Shown here: one piece after another, positions 18,324 to 63,207 of the stretch
Position numbering within the stretch: position 1 is the first letter of the stretch
Layout: every line of letters begins with the position of its first letter
Notes under the pieces: generated by a model
Database searches by the model: none
Told to the model about the DNA's origin: nothing
What the model saw: the letters and a program-made list of their open reading frames with translations, nothing else
Translations under genes and position numbers: made by a program
DNA from: a virus
Taxonomy: Duplodnaviria; Heunggongvirae; Uroviricota; Caudoviricetes
Length of the DNA stretch: 64,000 bases
Reading direction: 5' to 3' (one strand)
Virus record (IMG/VR): IMGVR_UViG_3300012007_000010
Location: 1-64,000 of that record

Positions 18324-18466
18324 TTATTGGACACGTAAGGGACCGCTACCTCATGGCGGTCTTTTTCTTCTACGCAAAGAAGAAATCGCCTCGACTGCTT
18401 GGCGGTTCGCAATATTATGCTTATCTTTGCCACCGCTACGACAAACTTTTAAAAAAGCTACACACA

Positions 18467-19264: not shown

Positions 19265-19283
19265 AGAGTCAGAAGAATTATTC

Positions 19284-22200
19284 TTACTCTGCGACGGCCA
19301 TCTTAGCATTAACTTCCAATTCCCAAGCAACCCCCTCGTAATGATATCCGTCAGATTCATTCATATATGGTTTGCACACCAGCGAAAACATATAACCAGG
19401 TAATACCAGTCTGTCATTACCTGCAAAAACAACCACTCTGTACTCACTATTATTGTAAATAATCATACGATTCCCAATAAGAGATCTTGCTTCATCTAAT
19501 TGGTCCTCAGTGTATCCAGCACTTCTCGGAGTGAAACTTGGTAGTTCAAATATAACAGGACCTTGTAATCTTTCAAACTCTAAAAATGTTCCTGATTTTA
19601 TTATATCTATAACATTGGTAACTCCAGAATCAAGAGAGGTAATGGCATATTGATCAATATTATCTGCGGTTATAACCGTTTTTCTTTTTCTTAATACACC
19701 GCTAAATTCTCCGCTTGTGGCATGTACCTCACCGCGTATATACGCATCATTCTGATACGTCTTTCCCGTGAGCAGGTTGACGGCATAGTGAGGGATGAAG
19801 TTGTGGTGGTCGGCACCCCATTGGCTACCGTCCGACTGCGGCTTGCCTGCGTGATCCTCGTTGGGATAGGCAGGGTCGAACCAGAAGTAAGTGGGCTTTG
19901 TCTCGCTGCCGTTGGTATATGTGGCAGGGTCTGTGTACTTTCCTTCGTAAGCAGTGCCGTTGATGGTGCCATGCACGGAGATGAGCCAGTCGCCGCTGAC
20001 GACGGCTGCACCGAACTGCGCGAAATCGGCAAAGAGATAGCGGGCGCGGACGAGGTTGTACTGGCTCATGCCCAGCACCCAAACGGGTTTCCCGTCAATC
20101 ACGATGCCATCGGTGGGGCCGATGGCACTCTGTGCGGTGCCGTCTGGCCAGTTGCTCTCAGCATTGAGGTAGTAGATGTCGGTGGTATCGTTGGTGCCGC
20201 TCACCTCCACGGCCACCGTCTGACTGTCGTTGCTGGTATATTCTACGTCTTCACGATATTCGCCGGCCATGTAGCATAGCTTACCCATTGCGCCGACGGC
20301 TCCAGTCAGGCAGATGTAGGAGGTCTTGTCGTTCACGCCTGCTGCCGTGTAGTGCATGATGCGCTCCCAAACGTAGGGGTGTGTTGGCTTCGGGTCGGGA
20401 GCCGACTGGAGCCAGCGCACGCCGTTCACCTGATAGAGATCGCCGTCGGCATGGCTGGTGCGGCTTCGGCTCAGAGCATAGGCATGCTCGTTGTAGGGGG
20501 CATTGTCGCCCTTCAGGTCGTCCTCATGTGCCATGTAGGCCGTAGCCACGCGGCCTTCTTCCAACTTGGGCATGCAGATGCAGGCGATAGAATGATTGCC
20601 TGTGCCGCTGTCGAAGGCCTGGTAGAATTGCAGATTGAGTGTCTCGGTGCTTATGCTGTTGTTAGTCAAGAAAGTGATGGTATGCCGTTTTCCATCCCAG
20701 TCGCCTGTAATCAGAACGTCATTAAATCCGTCATTGCTTACCTGATAATCCTCGCCATCAAGTATCACCTTTAAATCGTTGCCGAAAATGTTGGTACGAG
20801 TTCCGTCGAATAGGTTAAGAAAAGAGACGACAAGCCGCCCTCCGCCATTCGCAAGAAAGGCGTTAAACGACAATGTGTACCAAGTGTTGGCTTTTAACTT
20901 ACCTATCAGATTCTGGGAAATACTCGTATCTGCCCCGTTGTCCTTAGCGTTCAGCCGGATTGACTTCCGCCCGTTGACAACTGTGTCGGAATTGGTGTCG
21001 ATTGTGACATAGGTATCGCTGTTACTGTACCATGCCTCCAACACGAAAGGCATGCCACGATCGAAGATGGTGCGCAACAGGATGTTCGTATTGACCTCCT
21101 GCGCATCGTCGCCCTTTGGACCGGTGTCGCCGTCCTTAACGACTGTTATCTGCGGTGCTTCCTTCAGGACGGCACCTTCGCCGTCAACGAGTCTCAGTGC
21201 GATGCCGTCGGCGGCTGTGCGTACAGATGCAGCCGGGATGCCATACGCCATTCTAAGCATACCGTCTTCCTCGACTCTTAACCTCTCGCAGCTCCTCCAT
21301 GCTTTCCCGTCAATGCTGAATTTGACTTCATGCGCCGGGCTTCCGTCTAAATGCGCAATAAACAATATTTCTGTCCGCTTAGCCCCCGTGATAGAGAAAG
21401 CCCTGACTTCGATGTCGCCCGTCTCAATCGTCCCGTCGGCCTTGGCGTTGATGACACTTACACTTGTAACAATGTCATAAGTGACGGCATCCTCGGCATA
21501 GCGGTTGTGAATGACGGGTGCGTGGAATGTGCCCCAGCGGTGGTTCTCGTCGTCGTAGTCGCGCCAAGACTCCCACTCCACGTCGCCCGGCTTCGACACG
21601 CCCGTAGGGTCGTCGCTCCAGCCGGAGGGCACAAAGTCGTCAACAAGCAGGCAGTTGTCCACGCCGTCGGTCTGTCCGCTGACAGCCGTTCCGCCAGCCG
21701 TACCGGTGGTGGCATCGTAGCCTGTGTTGCTGTTTAGGCGGTAGATCCATTCGCGTATCTTCGAGTCCTCTCCATCGCGGACGAAGGCGATGGTGGCGCG
21801 AGAGAGTTCCTTCTCTGCTACAGTCTTGCCGTCGGCAGTGATGCGGCGCATGAGCCTCACGTTCACGCTCTGTTGTAAGGCAAAAGCCGTCGTAGCGATG
21901 TTGGCCGTGGCAGCTTCCTGCGATGAATCGCTGAAGGTGAGCTTCGTCCACTGAGTTGAGCCGACGGGAGCATATTCAGCCTCGAGCGAGGCATTGGCTA
22001 TCTGCCCCAGCGTCATGTCGAACACCTCGCCGCGCTGGTCGGTGCCCCGTATGCCCACGTTTACGCCGCCGTCAGGGCTGTAGTTCTGCGTCTGTGGATC
22101 ATAGCTGACGATAGTCTCTGACAGCGACAACTCATATTTCTCAATGGTTTCAGCCAGAATGGTGATAATGGATGATTTAAGTATAAGGTATGGAGGAAGA

Positions 22201-23212: not shown

Positions 23213-26200
23213 ATGGGACATTTAGCACTGGAAGTATTCGATTTGCCAACTAATGAGAATCCGAAGCCGACGGGCAGTAAGTATGCTGTGCTGTCAGAGA
23301 ACGCGAGTATCACCATCACCGACACGTCGGAGATATTCGGAAGTGGTGATGTTTGGTCATTTCCGTTCAAGCTTAACGTCAATGCCAATGCGCACATCTT
23401 CGGCACGGCGGGCGAGACGCACGGCTCGCGGCTGCACGAGCAGATAGATAAGCGCCGCGCCCGGCTATGGGTGGATGGCCTGCCGCTCTATCTCGGTTAT
23501 CTGAAACTCGGCGACGAAGCGGATGTGGACGCGAGTGGCGACGTGGATGTCAGCTTAGAGGCGGGAAGAAAAACTTTCGACGAGATGATAGAAGGGGCGA
23601 GTGCAAGAGATGTGAGCGTCGGCGACGTGGTGATAGGCGTGGCTCTGAACAGGAAACGCGTCATAACAATTAGTGACATTAACGTGAAATTTCGGCTCAA
23701 GAACTTACCTATAGACGATGTTAACGTAAGAAACGCCGTTGAAAGTTATATTTTCGAGCTCTCGGCAGGGGATTACGAATATCATTCCGCTCTTTCGCAT
23801 AGATGGCCAAAATTGGTGCTGTCAAAAGGCGAACTGACAGACTACACATCTGGAACAGGGGTTCCCGTTTCTTTTAATAAGACCAACATACAAAATCCTT
23901 ATGATGATAGTCACCCGTTTTGCAATGTCAACGTATGCTATCAGCGTAAACGGCAGAATGCGGATCTTAGTGAGACTACATTGCGCGACTATGTTATGCG
24001 ACTTGCCTATGGAAATGACACAACTACTGGTGGCGATGGACAAACACGTTTCAATAATGCACCAAATTTCTATCTTCTCTATTGGTTGAAGCGACTGTTC
24101 ATGGACCTTCATATTCAAGTCGTAGAAAATCAGATGCTCAACGTAGAAGACTTCCGACATGTATTTCTTGCCAATCTTGGCTGTTTTTACGAAGAGATGG
24201 ATAATGACAACGATACGACGGACAACTACTCGCAAGATAGTGCCGAATGGAAGAGGTATGGGAAATATTCCTTCCCTGATAGTTTTATTCTTGACCCAGA
24301 CAAGATATTTGCAGATGAACCAGGAAAAATCTATGTAAACAGCATTGATATAGAATCCGATATGTTTACTGAACATTTCCACGGAACTTATCATGGACAA
24401 ACGGGAGAGGTCACAGAAGTAACACAAACAATAAGGACAGAACCTATTAATGGATATCTTGCCTACGCAACAGGCGAGAATTATCCAAATGTGGAAATCT
24501 CGGAGATCATCGAGGCAACGGAGTCCGCATTTGGAGTAAGATTTCTTTTCAACAATGATTTCTCAGAAGTGCGCATAGTCCTGATAAGGAATATCTTAAC
24601 AAACAGAGCTGTAAAGGATTTGGACTGCGACATTATCGAAGAAACAAAAATAGAGAATAATATACGTGGGTTTAAGATGACTTACGGCCAAGGGAAAAGC
24701 AATGTTTCTTATTTTTACAAAGGGTTCGATGATATGCTCCCGAAGAAAAAAGTAATCTGGAAAGACAAAAGTGACAAACATGACTACTCGAATTGGAATC
24801 TAACTGCAAACTACAATGATGTAATAAACAATGTAACCGCTTTCGATAAGACATGCTATGTGACGCCGGATAACGGAAACGCATACGGCATAATGATTGA
24901 TGAAAAAGAAGATGTCTTTTTCCCCGCTGTCTTTGAATTTGCAGGATTCATGGATGCCTGCGATGGAGACTGTACTGAAGAAGGCACTACCATAGACACA
25001 AAGACGATCAATGCAACGCCTCTTATACCTAATAATATTAATGGTGATTATGCGGTTTTCTTTAATGGAGAGATGAAAGCACCTGGTGGGAAACATGAAG
25101 TAGCGGCCATGATTCCAATTAAATCTGTTGAATTAATACATGGATATAAACGTGTTTATAAAGGAACTGAACCCAGTGGCTGGGTTTCATTATGGGATGG
25201 TTACTATTTAGACTTGAAAAACGTAGAGATATATGTTAAAGAGGGATATTCATTGTCCCTCATGGATAACTATAGTTTCACAGGCAACGAAGGTACTCCA
25301 TTCGACAATGCCGACTTAGGGCTAAGCTTTGGGGTTATGCGTAGAGACGGAAGGAACTCTTCAATCATAAGCTATGAAGATCTGATCGAGGGAGAGGGAA
25401 ACTTTAACTGGGAGGTATCTCCGGACGGTGGTGCTATCATTCATCCCGATACCTGCGACAGTTATGGCAATGAATGGTATTATCACCCTGAGGAATCAGC
25501 AACAACTCTCACCGTCACAAGTCGAGAGGATGCTGTAAGGCTGTTAGAAAAAATGTTCCCAAGACGCAATGCACAATTTTATACGCCAGAACGAGGATAT
25601 ATAACCGGCTGTAATACACATGAATTATATGACTATGATGCTAATAGGGCATTCTATGCGATTACAGCCTGGTATCAATATTATCCCGTTACAGATCAAG
25701 ATATGGCAGATTGGTTATGGGAGATCACAATACTAAATAAAGATACACCGTTCTTTGCAATAAGAAGCATTGAAGCAGCCTATGAAGAAGATCGGAAACG
25801 GTGTAACATACTATTGGATTGTGGCTATGATGTTGATATTTCCCCAGGAAGAATAAAAACCATAGAAGATCTATTTAGAAAAGCCTATGGTCCTGATTCA
25901 CAAGAAGAGCATCCCATCATCATCGACAACGGTATAAGTGCGAGGTACGGGCGATTCTCACTCAAGCTACGGGCAGAGAAGCTGAACCCGTATTTCGACC
26001 CTTCTTTGCCAGATATCATTTCCACTAAAGATGCTGCAGGAAGAGCGATGAAAAGCATTTTCATAACAGCAAACACAGATTTGCTTTCTCGGCCAAGGAT
26101 CAGTGGCGCTGAGATGAAAGCTGCTGGATGGAACGATTTTGCCGATGGTGACTATGCCACGCTGTACAGTACGAGCTATTCGGTTTATTATGATACAGGT

Positions 26201-26704
26201 AAGGTGCATGAAATACTTTTTACCCCTATTCGCGAGGATGGAACGGTGCTTTCGCCAAGTCAACTCCAGAATTACGCTGTCGGATTTAATGGGCTGTCGG
26301 CTCATTCTATAGCTGCCAATGACACACAACATCTGGTACTCGACATAGACACTAATGACTCACGGGCGGAAATTCTGCATCAGCTTCAGGCAATCTATTA
26401 TGCCGCAGATGGAGAAATAGTTCCTACAGTAGATATAGGTAACACACGATATCTTAGTATCACTAATCCGAATCTGCGCAATCGTGGACTTTGCGATCAG
26501 TTCTACAAAGAATACTCATACTTGATACGTAATGGCCGTATTTGTAGAAAAAAGGTACGAATGGAGCTGGCTGTTCTGCTTTCCATAGACAAGACAAATC
26601 TTTATTGCGTCGGTGATATAACTGGATATATCCGCAAGATACAGTACACAGTAAGCAACAATACAGGACTTAATGATGTGACATTGGATATTATATATAT
26701 TTAA
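23213..26704 (+). CDS. large tail fibre-like protein (1163 aa) with a low-GC C-terminal ~1000 aa
   Basis: Long ORF. GC drops sharply from ~55% to ~40% at ~23650. The embedded antisense ORFs are AT-frame artefacts. Confidence 0.65.
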   Translation: MGHLALEVFDLPTNENPKPTGSKYAVLSENASITITDTSEIFGSGDVWSFPFKLNVNANAHIFGTAGETHGSRLHEQIDKRRARLWVDGLPLYLGYLKLGDEADVDASGDVDVSLEAGRKTFDEMIEGASARDVSVGDVVIGVALNRKRVITISDINVKFRLKNLPIDDVNVRNAVESYIFELSAGDYEYHSALSHRWPKLVLSKGELTDYTSGTGVPVSFNKTNIQNPYDDSHPFCNVNVCYQRKRQNADLSETTLRDYVMRLAYGNDTTTGGDGQTRFNNAPNFYLLYWLKRLFMDLHIQVVENQMLNVEDFRHVFLANLGCFYEEMDNDNDTTDNYSQDSAEWKRYGKYSFPDSFILDPDKIFADEPGKIYVNSIDIESDMFTEHFHGTYHGQTGEVTEVTQTIRTEPINGYLAYATGENYPNVEISEIIEATESAFGVRFLFNNDFSEVRIVLIRNILTNRAVKDLDCDIIEETKIENNIRGFKMTYGQGKSNVSYFYKGFDDMLPKKKVIWKDKSDKHDYSNWNLTANYNDVINNVTAFDKTCYVTPDNGNAYGIMIDEKEDVFFPAVFEFAGFMDACDGDCTEEGTTIDTKTINATPLIPNNINGDYAVFFNGEMKAPGGKHEVAAMIPIKSVELIHGYKRVYKGTEPSGWVSLWDGYYLDLKNVEIYVKEGYSLSLMDNYSFTGNEGTPFDNADLGLSFGVMRRDGRNSSIISYEDLIEGEGNFNWEVSPDGGAIIHPDTCDSYGNEWYYHPEESATTLTVTSREDAVRLLEKMFPRRNAQFYTPERGYITGCNTHELYDYDANRAFYAITAWYQYYPVTDQDMADWLWEITILNKDTPFFAIRSIEAAYEEDRKRCNILLDCGYDVDISPGRIKTIEDLFRKAYGPDSQEEHPIIIDNGISARYGRFSLKLRAEKLNPYFDPSLPDIISTKDAAGRAMKSIFITANTDLLSRPRISGAEMKAAGWNDFADGDYATLYSTSYSVYYDTGKVHEILFTPIREDGTVLSPSQLQNYAVGFNGLSAHSIAANDTQHLVLDIDTNDSRAEILHQLQAIYYAADGEIVPTVDIGNTRYLSITNPNLRNRGLCDQFYKEYSYLIRNGRICRKKVRMELAVLLSIDKTNLYCVGDITGYIRKIQYTVSNNTGLNDVTLDIIYI

Positions 26705-27966: not shown

Positions 27967-28326
27967 ATGAATCAAGTAATGATTGACCTCTGGCCCCTGT
28001 TGGTGCCGATATTGCTGGCAGCCGTGGGATGGCAGTGGCGCGAGAATCACCAACTGAAGATCCGCGTGGCTGTACTGGAAACAACTGTTGAGAACTTAGA
28101 GACTACGTTGACGAACATACAGAAGCGGCAGGACTCGCAGTCGAAGAAGCAGGATGACATCCTCGACCGCATACAGTCGATGGAGTCGGAGGTGCTGGAA
28201 CGAATGGGCAAGACCGACAGCAGCATCTCGTCGCTGTCGGCGCAGGTGAAAGGCTTGCACGACCTGCTGGTAGTGTCGGACTTCGGTATTCACACCAAAC
28301 ATAACAGTCATGGGCGAGAAGATTAA
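27967..28326 (+). CDS. membrane-anchored coiled-coil protein (119 aa)
   Basis: N-terminal TM (LWPLLVPILLAAVGW) then heptad repeats. Confidence 0.5.
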   Translation: MNQVMIDLWPLLVPILLAAVGWQWRENHQLKIRVAVLETTVENLETTLTNIQKRQDSQSKKQDDILDRIQSMESEVLERMGKTDSSISSLSAQVKGLHDLLVVSDFGIHTKHNSHGRED

Positions 28327-28672
28327 GAACACTGGAAGCGAACTGAAGAACCGCTGGCTGATGAAGATGCCACGCTTCTTCCGCATGATAGCCATCGGTG
28401 CCATCAATATTATCGTGGCAGCTACGGCGGTCAACTTCGGAGTGCCCGCGCTTGGCGGAACACTCTATGAATGGTGGGGCGACGTCTATACCCACATTCT
28501 CGTTGGTGCCATCTGCACGCTCGTGACGTGCAAGGTGACGGTGGCCGGTGGCTACAAGAACATTGACACCGACGAGCTGCTGCGCGGAAAGATAGAGCGG
28601 CACATACAGATGGAACGCGACATAGACGAAGACACCGACGGCGAACAGCCGGGGGAAGGGCAAGAAGAGTAG
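28310..28672 (+). CDS. small membrane protein (120 aa, 2 TM) with acidic C-terminus
   Basis: MIAIGAINIIVAATAVNFGVPALGG and ILVGAICTLVTC hydrophobic helices. Confidence 0.5.
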   Translation: MGEKIKNTGSELKNRWLMKMPRFFRMIAIGAINIIVAATAVNFGVPALGGTLYEWWGDVYTHILVGAICTLVTCKVTVAGGYKNIDTDELLRGKIERHIQMERDIDEDTDGEQPGEGQEE

Positions 28673-28808
28673 TGTTTTCTTCATAGTATTTGCATGGGGC
28701 GTAGCGACGCCAGAAAATTGTTTTAGGTTAGTAATAGTTTTAGGTTTTTAGTTATTGGTAAAAAGGGAAGGCCGTTGCCCGTGATGGGTAGCGGCCTTCT
28801 GACTTTCC

Positions 28809-28843
28809 CTGCCCTTGACCGCTACGGGCTGACATCGTATCTT
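28809..28843 (+). promoter_or_regulatory. late-promoter motif copy (CTGCCCTTGACC-N18-TATCTT)
   Basis: ctgcccttgacc gctacgggctgacatcg tatctt, upstream of the 28876 ORF and the fibre operon. Confidence 0.45.
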
Positions 28844-28875
28844 ACCGTCAGATTGTTTCACGAATAAATACTATT

Positions 28876-29037
28876 ATGGCAGACAACAACAGAACCAAAG
28901 TAGATCCTCGCTTCCTGAAGTACGATGCTTCAGAAGTAGAAGCGCTCCTCGACAAAGTAAACGCGCAGCAGGTGGCCGACGAAGCCGACATCCGCGCAAT
29001 GGTTACTGACTACGAAACCGCAGAGAGCGGTGAGTAA
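28876..29037 (+). CDS. small hypothetical protein (~53 aa, MADNNRTKVDPRFLKYDASEVEALLDKVNAQQVADEADIRAMVTDYETAESGE)
   Basis: Hand-translated ORF immediately downstream of a late-promoter motif. Below the ORF-track cutoff. Confidence 0.35.
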   Translation: MADNNRTKVDPRFLKYDASEVEALLDKVNAQQVADEADIRAMVTDYETAESGE

Positions 29038-29051
29038 AGAACAAACTGACT

Positions 29052-29438
29052 ATGGCAAAGACAACAGACCTCAGCAGCCTGAAGCATGTTCTCGCCCATC
29101 AGCTGCACCTCTATTACGAACCACAAGACGACGGCACCAATGTGCTGCGCCACATCCGCGTGAACCAGCGCACGTTCAATGTGCCGTCCGACGGAATCAC
29201 CATCGACACCCTTCCCGATGACTTCATCGGCTCCGAGCACATCAAGGACGGCACCGTGCAGGAGCAGGACCTCAGCCAGCAGCTGAAGAGCGGGCTGGTG
29301 AAAGCAGCTGAGAAGGGAACCAACGGCGGCATTGCCACGCTTGACAGCGACGGCAAGGTGCCAGCCGCCCAGCTGCCACAGCCGACAGTGGCCACGGAGG
29401 AAGACGTGCGCGGCATTGTAAGTAATTACACTGAATAA
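29052..29438 (+). CDS. tail fibre protein with phage tail-fibre repeat motif (128 aa)
   Basis: GGIATLDSDGKVPAAQLP matches the conserved phage tail-fibre repeat (GGvagLd.nGkvP..qLP). Confidence 0.6.
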   Translation: MAKTTDLSSLKHVLAHQLHLYYEPQDDGTNVLRHIRVNQRTFNVPSDGITIDTLPDDFIGSEHIKDGTVQEQDLSQQLKSGLVKAAEKGTNGGIATLDSDGKVPAAQLPQPTVATEEDVRGIVSNYTE

Positions 29439-29468: not shown

Positions 29469-30959
29469 ATGGCAAATACAGACTTAATTACCCGTGGCTT
29501 GCTCGACGCATTCCACAAAGAACTGCGAAAGGGCCTGAAAAATGGCAGCGTAGAAGTAAGCGCACAGAAAGCCAAGGATGAGACTTTGGCAGCTATCAAA
29601 GAAGCGCTTGAGAGTGGGGTTATCACCCCCGCCGTGGCTCACAACCTGGCATCATGGGATGGCGCGTCGACAAACGCCGACTACACGCAGACTTTGCCCG
29701 TCGACACCACCGGCGGCGACCTGAGTATCGACAGTGGCGTTCCGGCACGTCTGGTGAGCATCGGTGCAAAGACCGACTTCTCGGCCTCAGTGCTCTGGGC
29801 TACAGGATTCAATCTGCTGCGTCGCGCCCGCACCGTGGGCAGCGGCTATGCTATCATGGTGCCCGCCATGCCTTATTCGGAAATCGGTCACGCCACAACC
29901 CCCAACGGACTGCTGTTTACCGACGAGAATGGGGAGAACCTGCGCCCGACGGTGCGCTTCAAGCCGCTGTCGGCAGGGGTGCCCACCAGTGTCAGTGACG
30001 GCACGGAGTGCGCATACACCGATGCCACGCAGAACGGCAAGACCTACCGCTTCTACAACACCGCGCAGGCAGGCTGGCTGGTCATCAGCGGCATCACGCT
30101 CTCGAAGACCTGTGCGCATATCGGCTGGAGCCGCCGCTACGACGACTATGTGGCCATCGACGACGCCGGCGACGCCGGCTCGGAGATTGCGCTGACCGCC
30201 GTCATCGAAGCATGCCATTCGTTCGGCCAGATGCTCGTCGTCGGCAACGCATCCGACACCATCGAGGTCGTCAGCGACACGCAGCTGCGCTGGATTCGCA
30301 ACGTAGACCGCGTGCAGCCCTCGTGGTCGAACACGGAAACGGAAGGCACCGACGGCACCGTCACCTATCTGCACACCGCCATCATCGCCGGCATGAAGCA
30401 GGGCGGCAGCGCGGCCTTCCAGAACGAGGGCCAGGCACTCACCATAGACGGGCAGACCGTCAGCTATAGCGACCAGAACGAAGCTGCCCTGACCGACTAT
30501 GTGAAGTATGAACTGGCCACCGCCGCCACCGGTACCGTGGATATCGGAACGACGCTGACCGTGGAAGACTGGGGTATGATAGTGCTGCAGACCGCCGTCG
30601 GCGAGGCCTACGTCTCTATTGCCTACGCCCAGGGACTGCCCGACACGCTGCGTTCGCTGGCCGGCTCGCTCGACTCGCACAAGCTGCAGGTGCTGGTGGA
30701 AGCCATCGCAGGGCTGCACTATGAGGTAAACGCGCTGCGTCGCACACTCGCCGAGGGGCAGGCCGCACTGAAGGCCATCACCTTCGACTCTGAAGACGGC
30801 TTCATGATCATGGGACAGAAGATGTTCGATATCGTCAGTGCTGCCCCCACCGAGATTCCGAAGGCCGTAGGCCTGGTGCGCTTCAATGCCGAGACGGGCG
30901 CCTGCTACCTGAGCAAGGCTGTCACAAACTCTACGGGCGACTGGGCGCTCATCAAGTAA
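29469..30959 (+). CDS. tail fibre protein (496 aa)
   Basis: Long Thr/Gly/Ala/Asp-rich ORF in the fibre operon. The embedded antisense ORFs are artefacts. Confidence 0.6.
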   Translation: MANTDLITRGLLDAFHKELRKGLKNGSVEVSAQKAKDETLAAIKEALESGVITPAVAHNLASWDGASTNADYTQTLPVDTTGGDLSIDSGVPARLVSIGAKTDFSASVLWATGFNLLRRARTVGSGYAIMVPAMPYSEIGHATTPNGLLFTDENGENLRPTVRFKPLSAGVPTSVSDGTECAYTDATQNGKTYRFYNTAQAGWLVISGITLSKTCAHIGWSRRYDDYVAIDDAGDAGSEIALTAVIEACHSFGQMLVVGNASDTIEVVSDTQLRWIRNVDRVQPSWSNTETEGTDGTVTYLHTAIIAGMKQGGSAAFQNEGQALTIDGQTVSYSDQNEAALTDYVKYELATAATGTVDIGTTLTVEDWGMIVLQTAVGEAYVSIAYAQGLPDTLRSLAGSLDSHKLQVLVEAIAGLHYEVNALRRTLAEGQAALKAITFDSEDGFMIMGQKMFDIVSAAPTEIPKAVGLVRFNAETGACYLSKAVTNSTGDWALIK

Positions 30960-30997
30960 TATCGTAAATAATAAATCATCAAATAGTAAATTACATT

Positions 30998-32332
30998 ATG
31001 GCTATCAAGAAAGTAAACAACCTCTCTGAGTATGCTGCCAAGCCAAAGAGCAGCACCGAGACGACGCTTACGGGCGTGACCGACGGCAACGAGCTGCGCG
31101 TTGACGGCATCAACGTGCGAGTCGGCACTCCCGCCCTGGGTGATGCAGTCTATGAAGACGCCAATGGCTACTACTTTTACAAGGGTGGTGACCGCCTGAA
31201 CCACACTCTCCTCACTGCCGCCGGACTGACTGCCGTCGGGCCGGTGTGCGGATTCTACGGCGGCAAGGCCGTGGTAATGAACGGTACCGAGGCCGACCGC
31301 AAGTATGCCGACGTGCTGCAATACACCATCACCGCCATCACCAGCACCACGCCAACCATCAATCTCCGCTTCCGAGACACGTCGAAGAGCGGACAGGCGC
31401 AGTATGACAGCAACATCCCCGTCACACCTACGCTCACCTCTACCGACATCAACGCCACCACCGCCGCCGAAATCAGCGCCGCCGTGGCTGCCAAGGCCGT
31501 CGAGGTGGGCGACACGCAGGCATGGTGGGCCTATCTGGCCGATGCCGACGGCAATAAGGTGGACGAAGACGGTACGTGCATCATCATCCAGTGCGACGTG
31601 TGGAGCAACTACAATCAGTACAACGTCAGCGGCTCCGGCCTTACCGTCAAATTCACCACGTGGGGCGACATGCCCGCCAACAGCTGGTATAAGAAACTGA
31701 ACGGCAAGACCACGAGCTATCGCGGTCTGTTGAATATCGCCAGTGGCGCAACCTACTTCGGCACCGAAGGACGTGTGCCGACGTCCGACATCGCAGTGGG
31801 CAGCGAGGCCGGTGATACCAGCCCCGTGAAGCGCGAGGAGTTCAACACCTCGGCATTCTGCACCGCCATCCGCAATCATTACAAAACCTACGAAGCCTAC
31901 CTGCATGGCGAGTTTGACATCCCCTACCCGCAGAAGTGGGGCTGCTTCGGCCTGCCGCACGCAAAGGAACTGACGCTGAAGTATGCGTTGAAGACCGCTC
32001 CCACCAAGAACGGCGGCGAGAAGTACAAGTTCCCAGCCATGTACTATGCCTACAACACCTCCTACGGCATCGACGGCCTGGACTTCGGCGACTGGTATCT
32101 GCAGGGTGTTCACGAGGGCGTTCAGTTCATGGACGACGCCAACATAGCCGTCATCAACCGCACGCTGTCCAAGATGGGTAAGTCTACCATTAGTACCGGC
32201 ACGCACCGTTGGTTTGCTCAGAGGGACAACGCGGACGGCGCTTGGATCTTCAGCGGCTACAGCGGCACCTTGGGCTACAACCACGTGAACCGCACGTTTC
32301 GTGCGAGGGCCCTTGCGCTATTGAATTTTTAA
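30998..32332 (+). CDS. DGR target protein: receptor-binding tail fibre with C-terminal variable repeat (444 aa)
   Basis: C-terminus ...TGTHRWFAQRDNADGAWIFSGYSGTLGYNHVNRTFRARALA is the VR counterpart of the TR 750 bp downstream. Confidence 0.8.
   Translation: MAIKKVNNLSEYAAKPKSSTETTLTGVTDGNELRVDGINVRVGTPALGDAVYEDANGYYFYKGGDRLNHTLLTAAGLTAVGPVCGFYGGKAVVMNGTEADRKYADVLQYTITAITSTTPTINLRFRDTSKSGQAQYDSNIPVTPTLTSTDINATTAAEISAAVAAKAVEVGDTQAWWAYLADADGNKVDEDGTCIIIQCDVWSNYNQYNVSGSGLTVKFTTWGDMPANSWYKKLNGKTTSYRGLLNIASGATYFGTEGRVPTSDIAVGSEAGDTSPVKREEFNTSAFCTAIRNHYKTYEAYLHGEFDIPYPQKWGCFGLPHAKELTLKYALKTAPTKNGGEKYKFPAMYYAYNTSYGIDGLDFGDWYLQGVHEGVQFMDDANIAVINRTLSKMGKSTISTGTHRWFAQRDNADGAWIFSGYSGTLGYNHVNRTFRARALALLNF
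32195..32317 (+). repeat. DGR variable repeat (VR), 123 bp
   Basis: Aligns base-for-base with 33079..33201. All but one of ~22 mismatches fall where the TR has A. Confidence 0.8.
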
Positions 32333-32343
32333 TCTTAATCGCT

Positions 32344-32401
32344 CCGCGCCCATCCCGTAAGGGTGTGGCGCGGGCGTCATAACGCCGCCCCTTGGGGCGG
32401 C
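32344..32401 (+). terminator. two GC-rich hairpins immediately 3' of VR
   Basis: CCGCGCCcatCCC gtaa GGGtgtGGCGCGG, then the perfect palindrome GCCGCCCC tt GGGGCGGC. Confidence 0.45.
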
Positions 32402-32498
32402 TCGCAATCAGTGAAACAATATACCGACTACGACACCTATCTGCAGGACGCCTACGAACAGCAGGCCGACAGGTGGCGCGGAATAACAAGAACGCAAA

Positions 32499-32894
32499 AT
32501 GAATCACGGAACAAAGCCGAGACCAGGCGGCAATAAAGCCAAAAACGACAAGTCGAGCATACTGGTAGATGCCAAGATGCTGCTCAGGATTTACAATCCC
32601 ATCTTCCAGCACATGCCGAAGATAGAGCGCATCGACGGCCTCGGAGCCGACATGCGGCGTGCCATCCTCGACATCATCAGCCACTTCTCAATAGCCTACG
32701 AGTGCGAAGAGGTGCGGCAGCAGGAGATACGGCAGATGATAGGCAGCTACGGCAAGGCGATGGCCGTGTTTGATTTGCTGCGCGACCTTGGCGTGGTACC
32801 CGACACTGAACTGTATCTGATGGCGGAAAGGATGGACCGCATCGAGTGCGGCATCATGAAATGGCGCAATTCACTAAGAAGCTGTAAGTCTTAA
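32499..32894 (+). CDS. avd: accessory variability determinant (Avd)-like protein (131 aa)
   Basis: Small basic helical protein between VR and TR. YNPIFQHMPKIERIDG resembles the Avd YPIAQSIPRKHG segment. Position is canonical (target-avd-TR-RT). Confidence 0.65.
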   Translation: MNHGTKPRPGGNKAKNDKSSILVDAKMLLRIYNPIFQHMPKIERIDGLGADMRRAILDIISHFSIAYECEEVRQQEIRQMIGSYGKAMAVFDLLRDLGVVPDTELYLMAERMDRIECGIMKWRNSLRSCKS

Positions 32895-33078
32895 TTCCCG
32901 TCAGGAGCGGCGTCAGGTCCCGGCTTACGATGCTACGGGTTAGCATGCACACCGAAAGAGGTCGCCGTCAGCTACGGAATAAGATAATAGGGGACGCGGC
33001 TATCATTCCTGTCATTTGCGGCAGGCGTCGCGGCGGCTACGGCAGCCCGGCGATAGCAACATCGTAATGTCGTCCGAC

Positions 33079-33201
33079 ACCGGCACGAACCGTTGGTTTG
33101 CTCAGAGGTACAACGCGAACAACGCTTGGATCTTCAACGGCAACAACGGCAACTTGAACAACAACAACGTGAACAACACGAATCGTGCGAGGGCCCTTGC
33201 G
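33079..33201 (+). repeat. DGR template repeat (TR), 123 bp, AAC-rich
   Basis: Reads ...TGTNRWFAQRYNANNAWIFNGNNGNLNNNNVNNTNRARALA with ~15 Asn codons. The ORF-track '33016..33231 71 aa' is this TR, not a gene. Confidence 0.8.
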
Positions 33202-33259
33202 AAATTGTCTAAACGTATCATATTGGAATGACTTATAGTTTTCTTATCTGTTTAAAAAA

Positions 33260-34573
33260 ATGACCCTTCGAGAAAAAGCAACCATATTCAGGCATCAGTG
33301 CGACGTGATGGACGCTACCCGTAAGAATAAGCGCTACGGACGCGACTCCGTGGCCTTCGAGCGGCGTTGGGCCTCGCAGCTCTATAGCGACACGCAGGCA
33401 CGGCTGGGGCTTACGTTCCGGATAGAAGAGAATTACGTGTTCCTTACTTCGATTCCGCGCTGGCGGGAGATTTTTGCCACCTGCGCCTCCGGGCGCAACG
33501 CCGACCACGAACTGTGTGATGCACTGGAGCCGTATATTGAGCGCGAGTTGCACGAGCGCACGTTCAACAACCGCAAGAAGATGGGCAGCCAGGCAGCCAT
33601 CGACCGGGTTATGGAGGATGTCTTCGAGGTGACGCAGGGCTATACCCGTCCTGCCCGCATCATCAAGCTCGACCTCAAAGGATTCTTCCCTAATGCCAAT
33701 CTCGACGTTATGGAGCAGTTCTTCCTTCGCATCATCGACAAGTATCAGGACGACATCATTGCCAATGCTGGTATGTCGGGCGAATGTCCGCCGGCCTACG
33801 CCGCCGAATATCCTGCCTATCTGCGCTGGCTTGCGATGATTGTCATCCACTGCTGTCCCGCACGCCACTGTGAACTGCGCACGCCACGCACCCTCTGGCA
33901 TGAAAACATCGCCCCGGAGAAATCGCTCTTCGGCAAGCCCGACGGCATCGGTGCGCCAATAGGCCGTCTGCCGTCACAGAAAGGCATGGGTCTGTATGTG
34001 AACGACGAGGTGCGCTGGCTCAACGATGACTGCGGTGTGCGCACCACCTGCTTCATGGACGACTTCGTAATAGTAGTCACGGAAAGTCAGCATCGCTATG
34101 CGCTGTCACTTATACCAGCACTTCGTCGCCGGCTCGCCGCCAAAGGCGTTCGTCTGAACGAGAAGAAGTTCTACGACCAGCCATCCAAACGCGGGCTTGA
34201 GTTTCTCGGGTCACATATCCGCAACAACCGGCTGCACCTGAACGACTGCACCTATTGGCGCGGCATGGAGCGGTTGTGGTGGTTTAACGGCCTGTCGCCG
34301 GACTGGAAGTATCTGTTTCTTGAAAACTTCCTGTCGTCGGTCAACAGTTACTTCGGGCTACTGAAAACCCGCACAGACCACAAACGCCTGTTAGCACTGC
34401 TGCAGGTCGTCAATCTGGACTGGTGGTACTACTGCCACTACAATCCCCAACGCCAGTGCATCGCAGCCAACGAGAGTTACAGCCATCGCAACCTTATCAA
34501 CAGCAAATATCATTTATTAACCAACAAAAAGATTAAGCATTATGACACAACAGGAAAAGCAATCGCTGCTTAA
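33260..34573 (+). CDS. DGR reverse transcriptase (437 aa)
   Basis: RT motifs: IKLDLKGFFPNANLDVM (motifs 1/2), IGAPIGRLPSQ (DGR-RT signature GLPIGNLTSQ), FMDDFVIVV (YxDD box). Confidence 0.85.
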   Translation: MTLREKATIFRHQCDVMDATRKNKRYGRDSVAFERRWASQLYSDTQARLGLTFRIEENYVFLTSIPRWREIFATCASGRNADHELCDALEPYIERELHERTFNNRKKMGSQAAIDRVMEDVFEVTQGYTRPARIIKLDLKGFFPNANLDVMEQFFLRIIDKYQDDIIANAGMSGECPPAYAAEYPAYLRWLAMIVIHCCPARHCELRTPRTLWHENIAPEKSLFGKPDGIGAPIGRLPSQKGMGLYVNDEVRWLNDDCGVRTTCFMDDFVIVVTESQHRYALSLIPALRRRLAAKGVRLNEKKFYDQPSKRGLEFLGSHIRNNRLHLNDCTYWRGMERLWWFNGLSPDWKYLFLENFLSSVNSYFGLLKTRTDHKRLLALLQVVNLDWWYYCHYNPQRQCIAANESYSHRNLINSKYHLLTNKKIKHYDTTGKAIAA

Positions 34574-34790
34574 CGAGCAGTATCTTATCGTGAACAACGC
34601 CGAGGCAGAATTGAAGGCTACCGACTATATCGCAGCCAAGATTGCCGAGGGCAAGGCCACCAAGACCGAGTACAAGGAGAAGATTGAGCAACGCCAGCAG
34701 TGGCGAGATCAAATCAATGCCGCACAGGAAGAGATAGCCCGACTGGAGGCTGTCGAAACCGAGGACGATGCGCCACATCTCGATGAGTAA
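34542..34790 (+). CDS. hypothetical coiled-coil protein (82 aa)
   Basis: ORF that overlaps the RT 3' end by ~30 nt. Confidence 0.4.
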   Translation: MTQQEKQSLLNEQYLIVNNAEAELKATDYIAAKIAEGKATKTEYKEKIEQRQQWRDQINAAQEEIARLEAVETEDDAPHLDE

Positions 34791-34893
34791 GCAGCAGCAC
34801 CCGCCGCCTCTCCGGCGGGCATGCTGCCCTTGCGTCAAACGGCGCTCGCATTTATCTTAACACCAACACAACAACTTAACACCGATCAGAATT

Positions 34894-35283
34894 ATGACTA
34901 AGGCTAATTATTACAAAGGCGATGAGATTAAGTTCGCCATCAGACTCGAAGCCCCGGGCTTCTCTTTGGACGACGATGACTTCGACATCGAAGTCAAGTC
35001 TGGAAACACCAGCATCAAAGGCTACAAGGATGCGTCCAAGAGCCAGGACACCGATGTAGTCATCTTTAAGGAGACTGAGACGGTACAGCCAGAGACTCCC
35101 GAAGGAGAGGAACCTGCAGAGCCCGTCACCGTCAATACATGGTACGCTATCGTTGATACTTCTAAGCTTGCGATATCAAGCATGCGCGTCATCGCCACGG
35201 CATATATCGTCGATGCCAACGCCAATGACGGTGTGCGAAAGAATATCGCGGTAGAGACATTGGGGAAACTCGTAGAAATATAG
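34894..35283 (+). CDS. hypothetical acidic protein (129 aa)
   Basis: Protein-like ORF. Confidence 0.45.
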   Translation: MTKANYYKGDEIKFAIRLEAPGFSLDDDDFDIEVKSGNTSIKGYKDASKSQDTDVVIFKETETVQPETPEGEEPAEPVTVNTWYAIVDTSKLAISSMRVIATAYIVDANANDGVRKNIAVETLGKLVEI

Positions 35284-36852: not shown

Positions 36853-36899
36853 GAGGGGCTGCGCCCGTCCCGTAAGCTGCGGTACTTCCGCAGCCCCTC
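36853..36899 (+). terminator. hairpin with 11-bp perfect stem (GAGGGGCTGCG...CGCAGCCCCTC)
   Basis: Inverted repeat directly 3' of the 36263..36814 gene. No U-run follows. Confidence 0.4.
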
Positions 36900-37303: not shown

Positions 37304-37314
37304 ATGTTAAGTAT

Positions 37315-37333
37315 GCTGCCGTACCACGGCAGC
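37315..37333 (+). terminator. conserved hairpin GCTGCCGT-ACC-ACGGCAGC (family member 1)
   Basis: 8-bp perfect stem. A near-identical 30-bp copy lies at 41860-41890. Confidence 0.45.
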
Positions 37334-37356
37334 CCGACAATTAAAATCACGGCAAA

Positions 37357-41818: not shown

Positions 41819-41870
41819 AATCGTAAAATATTAAATTTTGTGTTTGTGTTGGTTGTTTCTTGTTCAGTAT

Positions 41871-41889
41871 GCTGCCGTATCACGGCAGC
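41871..41889. terminator. conserved hairpin GCTGCCGT-ATC-ACGGCAGC (family member 2) downstream of the capsid gene
   Basis: 30-bp near-identity with 37305-37336. Palindromic, so it functions on either strand. Confidence 0.45.
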
Positions 41890-41966
41890 CATAGAGGAAA
41901 TCAGAGGGCGGCAGCGCGGGCGGCGATATGATTCATACCCGCGCCGCCGCAGCACCTCCGATGCGT

Positions 41967-43501: not shown

Positions 43502-45382
43502 TTAGCGACGGTGGTTGCGGGCGGCGATTTCCTCGTCCTGCTTGCGCAAGGCGGCGGCAATTTCCTTGGGAGTCATGCCCGGCTTCACAACACTCTTGAT
43601 GCCGTTATACTGGGGAGCCTCGCCTGTTCCGTTATCCTGCGGAATACCAGCACCGGCGTCCACCATCGGTGCGGGCTTCTCCGAGAATTCCTTCACCTCG
43701 CTCTGTAGTTCCTTCACCTGCTTCTGCAGCTTCTCGATGGTAGCCACATGCTCGGCAATCTTAGCATCCTTTGCGGTGATGGTAGCCACATGCTCTGCGA
43801 TGGTCTTGCCCTGCTCGTCCTTCTCGACGGTCAGCGTCTCAATGGTCTTGTCGCGCTCGGCGAGGGTGGCGTTGGCCTGGTCGCGCTCTTCGGCAATGCC
43901 GTTCAGCGTAGCCAGCGTTTCCTTCAGCTGCGCTATCTCCTTGTCCTTCTCGGCAATCTTCTGCTCCGCCGAGTGCAGTGTTTCCTGAATCTTGTCGATC
44001 TCAGCAGCGGCGTTCTCCTGAGCCTCCTGCGATGCAGGGTCGGTAGCGGGTTCTGCGGCAGGGGCTTCCTCCTGGGCGGCGGGCTGCTCCTCCTGTGCGT
44101 TCTCTTCACTGACAGCGGGTGCCTCGGTTGCTGCTGCTCCCTCGGCTGGCTGTTCCGTAGCAGGAGTCTGCTCCTGCGTGGCTGCGGGCTGCTCGGCAAC
44201 CTCTGCGGCCTTCTTCTCTTCGTCTGGCATATCTTCTTGGTTTTGGGGTTTGGCTATCTCTACAGTCTCAGGACCGAAAAAGCCCTGCTCTTCTTTCTTT
44301 ACATGACCGTCATCGACTATTCTCAGGTCGCCACGGCTCGTAGCGACAGCGGCTTTCTGCTGTGCGTTGAGCTTGGCCATCTCCTCTGGCTCCTCACCCT
44401 CCGGCTGCTCGCCGTCGGGCTCGTTCTTCGGCTCCGCCGTCACCAGTCGTGCGGCGGTCAGCGTCTCGTTGGCCAGTTCGTAGATGCACTCAATGGCGCG
44501 GTTCATGTCGCCTATCTCATCGACCAGTGCCGGCATCACCTCCTGCGCCTCAAACACCTTTCCCGTCAGCATGTCGGCAGTAACGAGTGGGCGATTCTCG
44601 CGCACAGTCTGGTGGAACTGTTCGGTATCTCTGTCGAGTTCTGCCTGCAGCTTCTCATACTCGCCTGCGGCGGCCTCACGGTACCAGTCGTTCTTCTCGG
44701 GGCAATCCTTGCCGACGAGCTCCACATAGCGGTAGCCGTCCTGACTGACGGTATCATGGGCGACAGCCCAGAAAGCGGCCATCGTGCCGATGCAGCCGAA
44801 CTCGTCGCGAGGGTTCATCACCACCACGCGGTCGCACCGACAGGCAAGGTTCACACCGCTGCTGCAGCACATGCCGTCAACGAAGGCGACGGTAGGCTTG
44901 CCGGCCTGGCGGCAGTCTTCAATCATCATCTCGTAGTCGTTACGGCACGATGCCTGACCGCCCGGCGTATTGATGAGGAACAGGTGGCCTATCACCTGCG
45001 GAATCTGGTTGGCATACATCACCTGATCACGGAAGTCCTTGGTGCCATACGAGCAGCCGTCGCCGTCGCGGGTCACGGGACCGTCAACCACCACTACGTT
45101 GATTATCTCGTCGTCCTCCTGCAGTTCCTCGTCGTTCCAGTACAGATGGCGCTCTATGCGGTGGATGTTGCCGACGTACAGCTTATCCTCGAAGTTGGCC
45201 CCTACGGTCTTGCCGTCCTTCTGGTAGCCCTTCTTCGAGAGGAAGTAGCCGTGCTGCTTTTCTATGTCGTTGGGCAGGTGCAGCTCGATGGCCTTCTTCA
45301 GCGCATCGGCATACGTCTGTGCCAGGTCTGGGCGGAAGTCCCAGACCTTGTTGTGCATGATGTTCAATAGCCCGATATTCAT
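43502..45382 (-). CDS. prohead protease (S49/ClpP-like) fused to scaffold domain (626 aa)
   Basis: INTPGGQASC and MCCSSG segments are typical of ClpP/SppA-fold head-maturation proteases (lambda gpC-like). The C-terminal 300 aa is an acidic low-complexity region plus coiled coil (KEIAQLKETLATLNGIAEERD...), typical of scaffolds. Confidence 0.7.
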   Translation of the reverse strand: MNIGLLNIMHNKVWDFRPDLAQTYADALKKAIELHLPNDIEKQHGYFLSKKGYQKDGKTVGANFEDKLYVGNIHRIERHLYWNDEELQEDDEIINVVVVDGPVTRDGDGCSYGTKDFRDQVMYANQIPQVIGHLFLINTPGGQASCRNDYEMMIEDCRQAGKPTVAFVDGMCCSSGVNLACRCDRVVVMNPRDEFGCIGTMAAFWAVAHDTVSQDGYRYVELVGKDCPEKNDWYREAAAGEYEKLQAELDRDTEQFHQTVRENRPLVTADMLTGKVFEAQEVMPALVDEIGDMNRAIECIYELANETLTAARLVTAEPKNEPDGEQPEGEEPEEMAKLNAQQKAAVATSRGDLRIVDDGHVKKEEQGFFGPETVEIAKPQNQEDMPDEEKKAAEVAEQPAATQEQTPATEQPAEGAAATEAPAVSEENAQEEQPAAQEEAPAAEPATDPASQEAQENAAAEIDKIQETLHSAEQKIAEKDKEIAQLKETLATLNGIAEERDQANATLAERDKTIETLTVEKDEQGKTIAEHVATITAKDAKIAEHVATIEKLQKQVKELQSEVKEFSEKPAPMVDAGAGIPQDNGTGEAPQYNGIKSVVKPGMTPKEIAAALRKQDEEIAARNHRR

Positions 45383-62940: not shown

Positions 62941-63207
62941 GAACGTATGAAACAATTCCTTGAACTGACGGACGACGAAAATTTTTCTCCCGAAATGCTT
63001 GCGCGGTTCGGAAATGATGCTTATCTTTGCAGCGTCAAATCTTAGAAGCGGCATGAAGAGAGCCGCGCCGAGCGGCATTTTTTGTGCCCGTACTGTGGAG
63101 GTACATTTATATTAAATAAAAGGAATAACTGCACCGCGTGGGGTATGGGATAACCACCCCAAGGCATCTGCTTCTAAGAGCCTGACAGCGCGTAGTGCAG
63201 TTTTTAA

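Follow-up and report, generated by a model that had tools for sequence, protein, structure and literature searches.

A diversity-generating retroelement with a conserved structured RNA beside its template repeat in an uncultured gut phage

We describe here a region of an uncultured phage genome, positions 30998 to 34573 of a stretch of 64,000 nucleotides (referred to below as the window), that is almost certainly a complete diversity-generating retroelement (DGR) of the canonical Avd type. The phage is represented by a 138 kb contig of gut metagenome origin, and its relatives are found in Bacteroidales MAGs. The DGR is an ordinary representative of a well-known system, and its unusual part is a conserved RNA beside the template. 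The first-pass annotation had proposed a complete DGR with the order VR-avd-TR-RT as in phage BPP-1, and this is borne out by the repeats, the reverse transcriptase (RT) matches, and the fold and position of the Avd candidate. Its coordinates and translations match exactly on re-checking, and the 131-aa (32499-32894) and 437-aa (33260-34573) open reading frames are both present as claimed. The cassette runs from the target gene with its VR through avd and TR to RT, all on the + strand:

30998-32332, + strand: DGR target gene (444 aa), with VR at its 3' end and a C-terminal domain predicted to have a DUF1566/Lcl-type C-type-lectin (CLec) fold
32195-32317, + strand: VR, codons 400-440 of the 444 in the target gene, with diversified positions at 32204-32298
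32411-32536, + strand: small conserved ORF of 41 codons with a GTG start, where relatives L022 and L026 have ATG
32499-32894, + strand: avd (131 aa), putative accessory variability determinant, a predicted basic four-helix bundle
33079-33201, + strand: TR, with homology to VR that extends to 33207
33260-34573, + strand: DGR reverse transcriptase (437 aa)

VR and TR form a gapless alignment with an offset of 884 bp. No other repeat pair of this kind occurs on either strand of the 64-kb window; a search of both strands, with partial TRs also tried, revealed no second VR in the window. Translation gives TGTHRWFAQRDNADGAWIFSGYSGTLGYNHVNRTFRARALA for VR and TGTNRWFAQRYNANNAWIFNGNNGNLNNNNVNNTNRARALA for TR. 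When the mismatches are tallied by TR base, as had been proposed, they are adenine-specific: for 16 of the 17 the TR base is adenine, and for the other it is thymine (T at 33109, compared to G at 32225). With 38 adenines in the 123 nt of TR (31%), at least 16 of 17 mismatches at adenines has a binomial P of 8.3e-8. The adenine specificity reported in the first-pass annotation therefore stands, but its figure of 21 of 22 was a miscount. Continuing the alignment to the end of the homology at 32323/33207 adds two further adenine positions (AA in TR, CT in VR) and brings the tally to 18 of 19, but because these two are fixed in all close relatives they represent the IMH/IMH* boundary rather than diversified sites. 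TR contains 14 AAC and one AAT codon, in agreement with the approximately 15 Asn codons noted previously, and none of its 23 adenine-containing codons can be converted to a stop codon by substitution of adenine.

The same pattern is seen across 23 related loci, where adenine is the TR base at 408 of 421 VR/TR mismatches. A direct repeat is also what an ordinary duplication or a gene-conversion tract formed without reverse transcription would leave, and the presence of the repeat is all that speaks for such an origin. The restriction of the mismatches to adenines, in one direction (P = 8e-8) and in all 23 loci, refutes it, the downstream repeat is an AAC-rich non-coding copy, and genes for an RT and an Avd protein adjoin the repeats; we give this origin a vanishingly small probability.

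The 437-aa protein passes the RT domain searches that had been proposed as a check on its identity as a DGR RT, matching Pfam RVT_1 (34.3 bits, against a cut-off of 29.6) and PHROG 1423 (an RT family; 2.8e-25), and having 8ub7_A, the BPP-1 bRT, as its sole PDB match. BLASTP against Brt gives an E-value of 5e-11 with 26% identity. The protein carries GIGAPIGRLPSQ and CFMDDFVIV, and its IGRLPSQ and FMDD align with IGSLTSQ and YMDD of Brt; across the family and bRT there is no variation at residues I234, G235, S239, Q240, and M266-D267-D268. The motif [ILV]GxxxSQ together with a YxDD-type box is characteristic of DGR-clade RTs, and the presence of both suggests strongly that this protein is a member of that clade.

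The assignment of the 131-aa product as Avd is less direct. It is predicted to form a four-helix bundle that matches Avd structures, using an alignment built on database homologues, and a word-indexed homologue search recovered 15 proteins. Four-helix bundles match many unrelated structures too. The earlier description of this gene as Avd-like is favored by a weak PHROG match, the fold, and the position, but not by Pfam bAvd, which does not match the protein even at E = 10, nor by hhalign of the Avd family against BPP-1 Avd (Bbp7), which is not significant (4% probability); a PDB search with the Avd profile returned noise only. From the weak PHROG match, the fold, and the position we conclude that it is probably an Avd and would provide the accessory protein expected of a DGR. 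The phmmer match to PPR proteins was rejected as a repeat artefact with zero accepted stretches.

The small ORF upstream overlaps the start of avd by 38 nt, and avd is read in the +1 frame with respect to this ORF; inspection by eye showed no convincing slippery site for a +1 shift. Its motif, DY[DG]xYLxxAYE[EQ]Q, is kept in lineages whose RTs are only about 50% identical, and the peptide is fused in-frame to Avd in relatives L007, L008, L009, and L010, encoded separately in L011-L014 and L032, and absent from others. Because the codon-position counts are flat within the close family (9, 8, 9), it is taken as a putative coding ORF from the fusions and from how deeply its motif is conserved.

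Comparison of related genomes, also proposed earlier as a check, shows that VR is polymorphic and TR invariant. Between relatives L001 and L003 there are 19 differences in 8,000 bp, every one of them in VR and 18 at TR adenine positions, while their TRs are identical; L020 and L021 differ at 26 positions in VR, all corresponding to TR adenines, and at none in TR. No segment of the cassette is less conserved than VR, whose identity to relatives is 65-77% compared to 84-95% for TR. The DGR is thus apparently active, with the current activity of the window copy judged from its relatives.

A fossil element, in which a once active window copy has ceased to diversify its target and has left the VR/TR differences behind as relics, is improbable. 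The single non-adenine mismatch could reflect drift after the last homing event, and decay does occur in the family, as relative L009 has six non-adenine mismatches among 19. However, all three reading frames are intact in the window, the catalytic and DGR-specific residues of the RT are conserved, TR retains its 15 Asn codons and has no stop-prone codon, and the IMH-like end and hairpin described below are intact. Very close relatives show turnover in VR alone, and only one of 85 non-adenine positions differs between VR and TR, indicating that the last homing event was recent.

The 3' boundary of VR and the sequences beyond it contain the following features:

32300-32323, + strand: IMH-like VR 3' end, a G/C-rich 18-mer CGTGCGAGGGCCCTTGCG followed by CTATTG
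32340-32376, + strand: GC-rich hairpin or cruciform candidate with a GTAA loop, beginning 16 nt past the end of the VR/TR homology
32384-32401: second hairpin
33184-33207, + strand: IMH*-like counterpart at TR, the same 18-mer followed by AAATTG

The asymmetry of CT in VR and AA in TR is fixed in all close relatives, and an equivalent fixed difference is present in distant ones. This is the type of asymmetry that separates IMH from IMH* in DGRs, and the VR end is predicted, by analogy with BPP-1, to have an IMH-type function. The hairpin at 32340-32376 has a DNA fold z-score of -2.85, and a GC-rich hairpin lies 16-45 nt after VR in nearly every related locus, its position kept while its sequence differs; the related loci have no comparable GC-rich hairpin after TR. 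GC-rich hairpins or cruciforms with a 4-nt GRNA loop are found 4-34 bp downstream of VR in BPP-1 and other phage DGRs (PMC3240598); the GTAA loop here fits GNRA but not the published GRNA consensus. Possibly this hairpin acts instead as a terminator.

Diversification covers the last 40 aa of the target, and alignment of 22 target homologues shows variation concentrated at the Asn-codon positions within a conserved scaffold, RWFAQR..AW.F.G..G.L...V...RARALALL. Structure prediction, which had been suggested for the C-terminus with a C-type-lectin fold as one expected outcome, returned a DUF1566/Lcl-type C-type-lectin fold with high confidence, and VR maps onto this domain in the predicted model. 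The top match of the CLec fold is BACOVA_04982, the same template as reported for the targets of the Bacuni-phage DGRs, and the closest fold match to the target is a Bacteroides pilus-tip adhesin. Searches by sequence found no match to Pfam DUF1566 or FGE-sulfatase at E-values up to 10, using either the full target or its C-terminal 144 aa, and PDB sequence searches, run with the target profile and with the 496-aa, 1163-aa, and 1280-aa proteins, produced either nothing or noise. The N-terminal portion of approximately 300 aa has no assigned function.

The first-pass annotation placed the variable region at the tip of a tail fibre. This is plausible, and by analogy with BPP-1 the target is most likely a virion receptor-binding protein. 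The one tail-related signal comes from a 128-aa gene (29052-29438) two genes upstream, in the form of a weak tail-fibre-motif match, with a minor-tail PHROG at 5.4e-7; the 496-aa gene upstream of the target has no family match, and Pfam, NCBIfam, and PHROG scans of the neighbours, including the 496-aa, 1163-aa, and 388-aa proteins and the target, were almost all empty. It is possible, but we consider it doubtful, that the DGR is genuine and acts on some other surface-exposed lectin-fold protein rather than a fibre tip, such as a separate adhesin, a decoration protein, or a tentaclin-like protein, with ligands that could be host or non-host. Phage DGR targets outside tail fibres have been documented (PMC10743442). 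The target matches no tail-fibre or other family in Pfam, NCBIfam, or PHROG and has no tblastn match among GenBank phages, its predicted model is a compact globular 444-aa protein without a fibre-like shaft, and its best fold match is the pilus-tip adhesin, not a phage fibre.

The spacers on either side of TR are as follows:

32895-33078, + strand: conserved structured RNA that fills the 184-nt avd-TR spacer, with two domains, the 3' domain closing 4 nt before TR
33208-33259, + strand: AU-rich TR-RT spacer of 52 nt

Conservation of the avd-TR spacer equals or exceeds that of the flanking genes, and RNAalifold gives a consensus structure for it. In almost every distant relative, a covariance model (R1) places the element directly 5' of TR (E-values of 2e-10 to 0.15). 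Of the 50 pairs, 33 show compensatory changes, and pairing holds in 93.8% of cells compared to 26-51% in slid controls. The conserved core is about 120 nt, extended here to 184 nt by lineage-specific insertions. The structure is detected by comparative analysis only, since a single-sequence MFE fold of the whole avd-to-RT RNA is no better than shuffles (z = 0.18), and a search of Rfam with 32300-33330 gave no match up to E = 10.

The TR-RT spacer is, apart from VR, the least conserved segment of the cassette, and the consensus fold of its alignment is weak and unconvincing. Of 278 Avd-type DGRs, 207 are reported to have, immediately 3' of TR, an Avd-binding stem-loop of approximately 9 bp capped by a tetraloop (bioRxiv 10.1101/2023.10.23.563531). 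Neither the window nor its relatives have a GC-rich stem-loop within 75 nt downstream of TR, where weak AT-rich hairpins alone are found. We suggest, tentatively and as a reading that is rather unlikely, that this lineage of Bacteroidales-phage DGRs assembles its RT complex in a manner unlike BPP-1, with a 5' RNA scaffold, a short 3' spacer lacking the stem-loop, and an extra N-terminal Avd module. This module would be the DYxxYLxxAYEQQ peptide, fused to Avd in some members and encoded in others, including the window, by a separate overlapping ORF to which avd is in the +1 frame.

Mutagenic retrohoming, with an RNA intermediate and RT-dependent replacement of VR, is predicted for this DGR from the BPP-1 paradigm. 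The RT and the four-helix-bundle Avd protein would bind an RNA carrying TR and the structured element just 5' of it, forming an RT-Avd-RNA complex in which the RT would make cDNA of TR and misincorporate opposite template adenines. The cDNA would then take the place of VR in the 3'-terminal part of the target gene, a step that the GC-rich IMH-like VR end and the GC hairpin 16 nt downstream may direct. As many as 23 codons, including the 15 for Asn, would be randomly substituted in the CLec-fold C-terminal domain of the 444-aa protein, giving a potential repertoire of up to about 10^22 protein variants that could serve in receptor binding, as in BPP-1.

The resemblance to the BPP-1 element (mtd-avd-TR-brt) extends to a target with a 3'-terminal VR followed by avd, TR, and RT, adenine-specific mismatches, a homologous RT with IGxxxSQ and MDD motifs, the four-helix-bundle fold of Avd, a VR whose IMH-like, GC-rich end is followed by a candidate GC hairpin, and a variable domain with a CLec fold. 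The RT, however, is only 26% identical and has 109 more residues, with an insertion in its interior and an extended C terminus, and Avd has no detectable sequence similarity. The spacers are inverted in length, with a structured avd-TR spacer of 184 nt and a TR-RT spacer of 52 nt in the window compared to 0 nt and 144 nt in BPP-1, and the hairpin loop is GTAA rather than GAAA. The CLec domain is of the DUF1566/Lcl subtype and not the Mtd type, and no sequence search joins the target to Mtd.

Among GenBank phages, none of which matches the region 30000-35000 by megablast, the nearest RTs are those of the Bacteroides uniformis 'Bacuni' phages F1, F2, and F4 (Hedzet et al. 2021, PMC8143477). These share the host order, the local order of target, Avd, TR, and RT, and a VR comprising the last 35-40 codons. 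They differ in that RT identity is just 24-26%, the window target lacks a tblastn match in them as in all other GenBank phages and lacks a Pfam DUF1566 sequence match, two targets are present compared to one VR found in the 64-kb window, and their genomes are about 40 kb compared to the 138-kb contig here. The C-terminal domain of Legionella pneumophila Lcl, the DGR variable proteins of the DUF1566 class, and Treponema TvpA are also comparable, but these are cellular rather than phage proteins, and the window target has no sequence-level membership in their family.

The cassette adds one more phage to those in which targeted hypermutation acts on a surface lectin domain. Gut-phage DGRs are already catalogued in large numbers, including those of Hankyphage, the Bacuni phages, and crAss-like phages and those from metagenome surveys, and so the element itself adds little that is new. 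Its identification does provide annotation for three families of "hypothetical" genes and a function for a region of a 138-kb phage that is otherwise nearly unannotated. What could matter is the covarying avd-TR RNA together with the optional N-terminal Avd peptide. To our knowledge a single DGR ribonucleoprotein system has been solved structurally, and the RNA and peptide offer a testable handle on ribonucleoprotein variation outside it. If this lineage does assemble its RT complex differently, then priming, termination, and Avd docking would be organised differently in a large and abundant clade of gut-phage DGRs.

The region 30998-34573 contains a complete diversity-generating retroelement (DGR) with the canonical architecture, and evidence from the repeats, the reverse transcriptase (RT), the Avd protein and related loci shows that the first-pass annotation was correct in substance. 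Its components are:

30998-32332, + strand: DGR target gene, 444 aa, with the variable repeat (VR) at its end
32195-32317, + strand: VR, aligning without gaps to the template repeat (TR) at an offset of 884 bp
32340-32376, + strand: GC-rich hairpin with a GTAA loop (DNA fold z = -2.85)
32411-32536, + strand: small ORF of 41 codons, its start conserved as GTG or ATG
32499-32894, + strand: avd, 131 aa, with a PHROG 3206 match and a four-helix-bundle model
33079-33201, + strand: TR, a non-coding copy of VR
33260-34573, + strand: DGR reverse transcriptase, 437 aa, with Pfam, PHROG, PDB and Brt matches

Re-translation reproduced the reported VR and TR translations exactly, but the two repeats differ at 17 positions and not at the approximately 22 counted initially. 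The adenine-specific pattern stands, with 16 of the 17 mismatches at TR adenines and the other a T in TR (33109) opposite a G in VR (32225); adenine makes up 31% of TR, and the chance of at least 16 of 17 mismatches falling on it is P = 8.3e-8. Homology extends six bases further, to 32323/33207, and includes two more TR adenines that differ (AA in TR, CT in VR), but all close relatives have the same bases at both, which are therefore taken as boundary marks and not as diversified sites. Neither strand of the window has a further copy of the repeat, even with TR adenines treated as wildcards. The estimate of about 15 asparagine codons in TR corresponds to 14 AAC and one AAT. Adenine substitution yields a stop codon in none of the 23 TR codons containing adenine, and the ceiling on diversity computed from the TR codons is ∼10^22 protein variants. 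A spurious 71-aa ORF at 33016-33231 (+) encloses TR, and the RT in some database entries (P0059) is annotated with an N-terminal extension reading through TR (MNNAWNFNGTNRNLNNNNVNN...), an annotation artefact typical of DGRs.

The 437-aa protein was recovered as an RT in domain searches (34.3 bits for Pfam RVT_1, whose cut-off is 29.6) and matches PHROG 1423 (E = 2.8e-25). Its sole PDB sequence match is 8ub7 chain A, the DGR reverse transcriptase of Bordetella phage BPP-1, and it is 26% identical to Brt from the BPP-1 record (E = 5e-11). Brt and ten family members, when aligned, share without exception the DGR-typical motif I-G-x-x-x-S-Q (IGRLPSQ in the window) and the catalytic-box M-D-D. Relative to Brt (328 aa), the window RT family has a ∼45-residue internal insertion between the finger and palm motifs and a conserved C-terminal extension with a WW..C motif, and the regions of the window RT that differ lie at about residues 150-205 and 340-437, respectively. 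The gene described as Avd-like matches PHROG 3206, "Avd protein of DGR", at 7.4e-5, as do five of 13 Avd orthologues from related loci (best 9.7e-12). Homologues 52-55% identical to it match Pfam bAvd (PF22296) below the cut-off, and the predicted structure is a four-helix bundle (pLDDT 86.9).

A metagenome protein collection contains 490 RT and 284 target homologues. We retrieved 31 related loci, and the 23 with enough upstream DNA for comparison all have a VR/TR pair in the same arrangement, with 408 of 421 mismatches at TR adenines. The expectation that VR should be polymorphic and TR invariant is borne out in these relatives. Two IMG/VR contigs, L001 and L003, have identical TRs and differ at 19 of 8,000 aligned bases, all 19 within VR and 18 of them at TR-adenine positions; likewise, L020 and L021, both closely related to the window, have identical TRs and 26 VR differences, every one at a TR adenine. 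When the window is compared by segment with three relatives, VR has the lowest identity (65-77%; TR, 84-95%). Among 22 target homologues (73-100% identical) variation is at discrete positions of the last 45 residues, on the fixed scaffold RWFAQR..AW.F.G..G.L...V...RARALALL. These relatives suggest that the window DGR has been active recently. A further relative, L009 (IMGVR_UViG_3300014057_000001, 2924-3018 / 3797-3891), has six of 19 VR/TR mismatches at non-adenines, and may be a decaying element or have had its repeat over-extended by the script.

The last 18 bases of VR (32300-32317) are G/C-rich and common to TR; the fixed CT/AA difference that follows them resembles the asymmetry between IMH and IMH*, the 3'-end boundary sequences of VR and TR in BPP-1. 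The hairpin begins 16 nt past the end of VR/TR homology and could conceivably act as a terminator. Nearly all related loci have a GC-rich hairpin 16-45 nt 3' of VR, differing in sequence by locus, and in none was a comparable hairpin found after TR. BPP-1 retrohoming requires a hairpin/cruciform with GC-rich stems of 7-10 bp, 4-34 bp from VR, in which stem structure matters and sequence does not (PMC3240598). The hairpins of the window and its relatives resemble this retrohoming element and are candidates for it; the GTAA loop of the window departs from the published GRNA consensus (PMC3240598).

The layout around TR is inverted relative to BPP-1, whose TR directly adjoins avd and is separated from brt by 144 nt; the window has 184 nt between avd and TR and 52 nt between TR and the RT gene. 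The 144-nt BPP-1 spacer is an RNA scaffold that wraps around RT, binds Avd and serves to prime cDNA synthesis, and an Avd-binding stem-loop lies directly 3' of TR in 207 of 278 Avd-type DGRs (bioRxiv 10.1101/2023.10.23.563531). The 52-nt spacer is AU-rich and weakly conserved, and no GC stem-loop was found in it. The 184-nt spacer is 96.7%, 92.4% and 79.5% identical in three relatives, at least matching the flanking genes, and its RNA folds as two domains. A covariance model from six close sequences, searched against 334 kb, matches directly 5' of TR in nearly all distant relatives (E = 2e-10 to 0.15), whose RTs are only ∼50% identical, and has no match at BPP-1's own cassette. In the resulting alignment compensatory changes are seen at 33 of 50 pairs, pairing holds in 93.8% of cells (26-51% with partners slid) and 129 cells are changed on both sides (7-25 in slid controls), figures inflated by the fitting of the alignment to the model; helices present in most sequences each have several pair types. 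The conserved core of ∼120 nt has two parts joined by an A-rich linker: a hairpin in which AGGUC and AAGAG bulges are conserved, and a second stem, closed 4 nt before TR, which has a 45-nt insertion in the window lineage. No Rfam 15 family matches this RNA. We infer that it may be the RT/Avd-binding scaffold of this lineage, placed 5' of the template.

Lying 5' of avd, the small ORF shares 38 nt with it, and avd is read in the +1 frame. Distant relatives fall into three groups by the small-ORF motif, DY[DG]xYLxxAYE[EQ]Q: in L011-L014 and L032 it lies in an ORF of its own, again with avd in the +1 frame; in L007, L008, L009 and L010 it is joined in frame to the Avd N-terminus; and in L001, L004, L006, L015 and L016 it is absent. 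The small ORF seems to be an N-terminal Avd module that is optional; taken alone, substitution patterns among close relatives are not proof that it is coding.

The target has no family match in Pfam, NCBIfam or PHROG, even at E = 10, and no tblastn match among GenBank phages. Foldseek against viral models returned DUF1566-domain phage proteins, from which we place VR on a predicted C-type-lectin fold of the DUF1566/Lcl subtype, one of the folds anticipated for the C-terminus. Bacteroides phage DGR targets belong to this class and are themselves modelled on BACOVA_04982 (PMC8143477). Two genes upstream of the target have family matches:

27967-28326, + strand: Rz-like spanin candidate (PHROG 89 and 739)
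29052-29438, + strand: 128-aa gene with minor-tail (5.4e-7) and tail-fibre (1e-3) PHROG matches

The region 27967-29438 (+) encodes the spanin candidate, a 120-aa ORF without a family match and the 128-aa gene, in that order, directly 5' of a 496-aa gene and the target. The 128-aa gene, two positions upstream of the target and with PHROG matches running through the stretch containing GGIATLDSDGKVPAAQLP, is the sole local support for a tail-fibre reading; the description of the target as a tail-fibre tip is not established, and a receptor-binding role is inferred as the most likely one.

The window derives from a 138,214-bp contig of the ENA gut metagenome assembly WOLF17-1. Related RTs occur in ruminant Bacteroidales MAGs and a Prevotella genome, and the nearest GenBank-phage RTs, in Bacteroides phages F2, F4 and Bacuni_F1, are 24-26% identical to that of the window. 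Along with an exonuclease, the window encodes:

43502-45382, - strand: head maturation protease (E = 3.7e-36)
46692-59255, - strand: 4,187-aa ORF with weak tape-measure PHROG matches (1.5e-7, 3.7e-5, 4e-5)
63127-63204, + strand: c4-2 antisense RNA (Rfam RF02944; 47.4 bits, gathering score 41)

The 4,187-aa ORF also weakly matches an SbcC-like coiled coil and lies upstream of 45456-46631 and the protease on the same strand; if a tape measure, it is exceptionally long. P1-type phages have an antisense immunity RNA to which the c4-2 family is related. No tRNA genes were found in the window. Its GC content is ∼56%, with low-GC islands (about 0.56 elsewhere) at 18001-20000 (0.44) and 24001-26000 (0.40), the latter inside a 1,163-aa ORF (23213-26704) without a family match. 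Direct tandem repeats at 5060-5118/5543-5601 and 5243-5303/5717-5777 (88-92% identity, ∼480 bp apart) suggest that small minus-strand genes have been duplicated, and an inverted partner, 71-74% complementary, is located towards the opposite end of the window at 62693-62769. A 30-nt motif with a short palindrome, TGTTMAGTATGCTGCCGTAYCACGGCAGCC, is found at 37305-37334 and 41861-41890, the two best copies (93% identical), and also at 36866 and 38925, and probably represents a terminator or regulatory site repeated between genes.

The window DGR joins a well-populated class, the gut-Bacteroidales-phage DGRs that diversify DUF1566/Lcl-type lectin domains. Only two features go beyond this known picture, the structured RNA 5' of TR and the Avd peptide that is either separate or fused, and both merit targeted follow-up.
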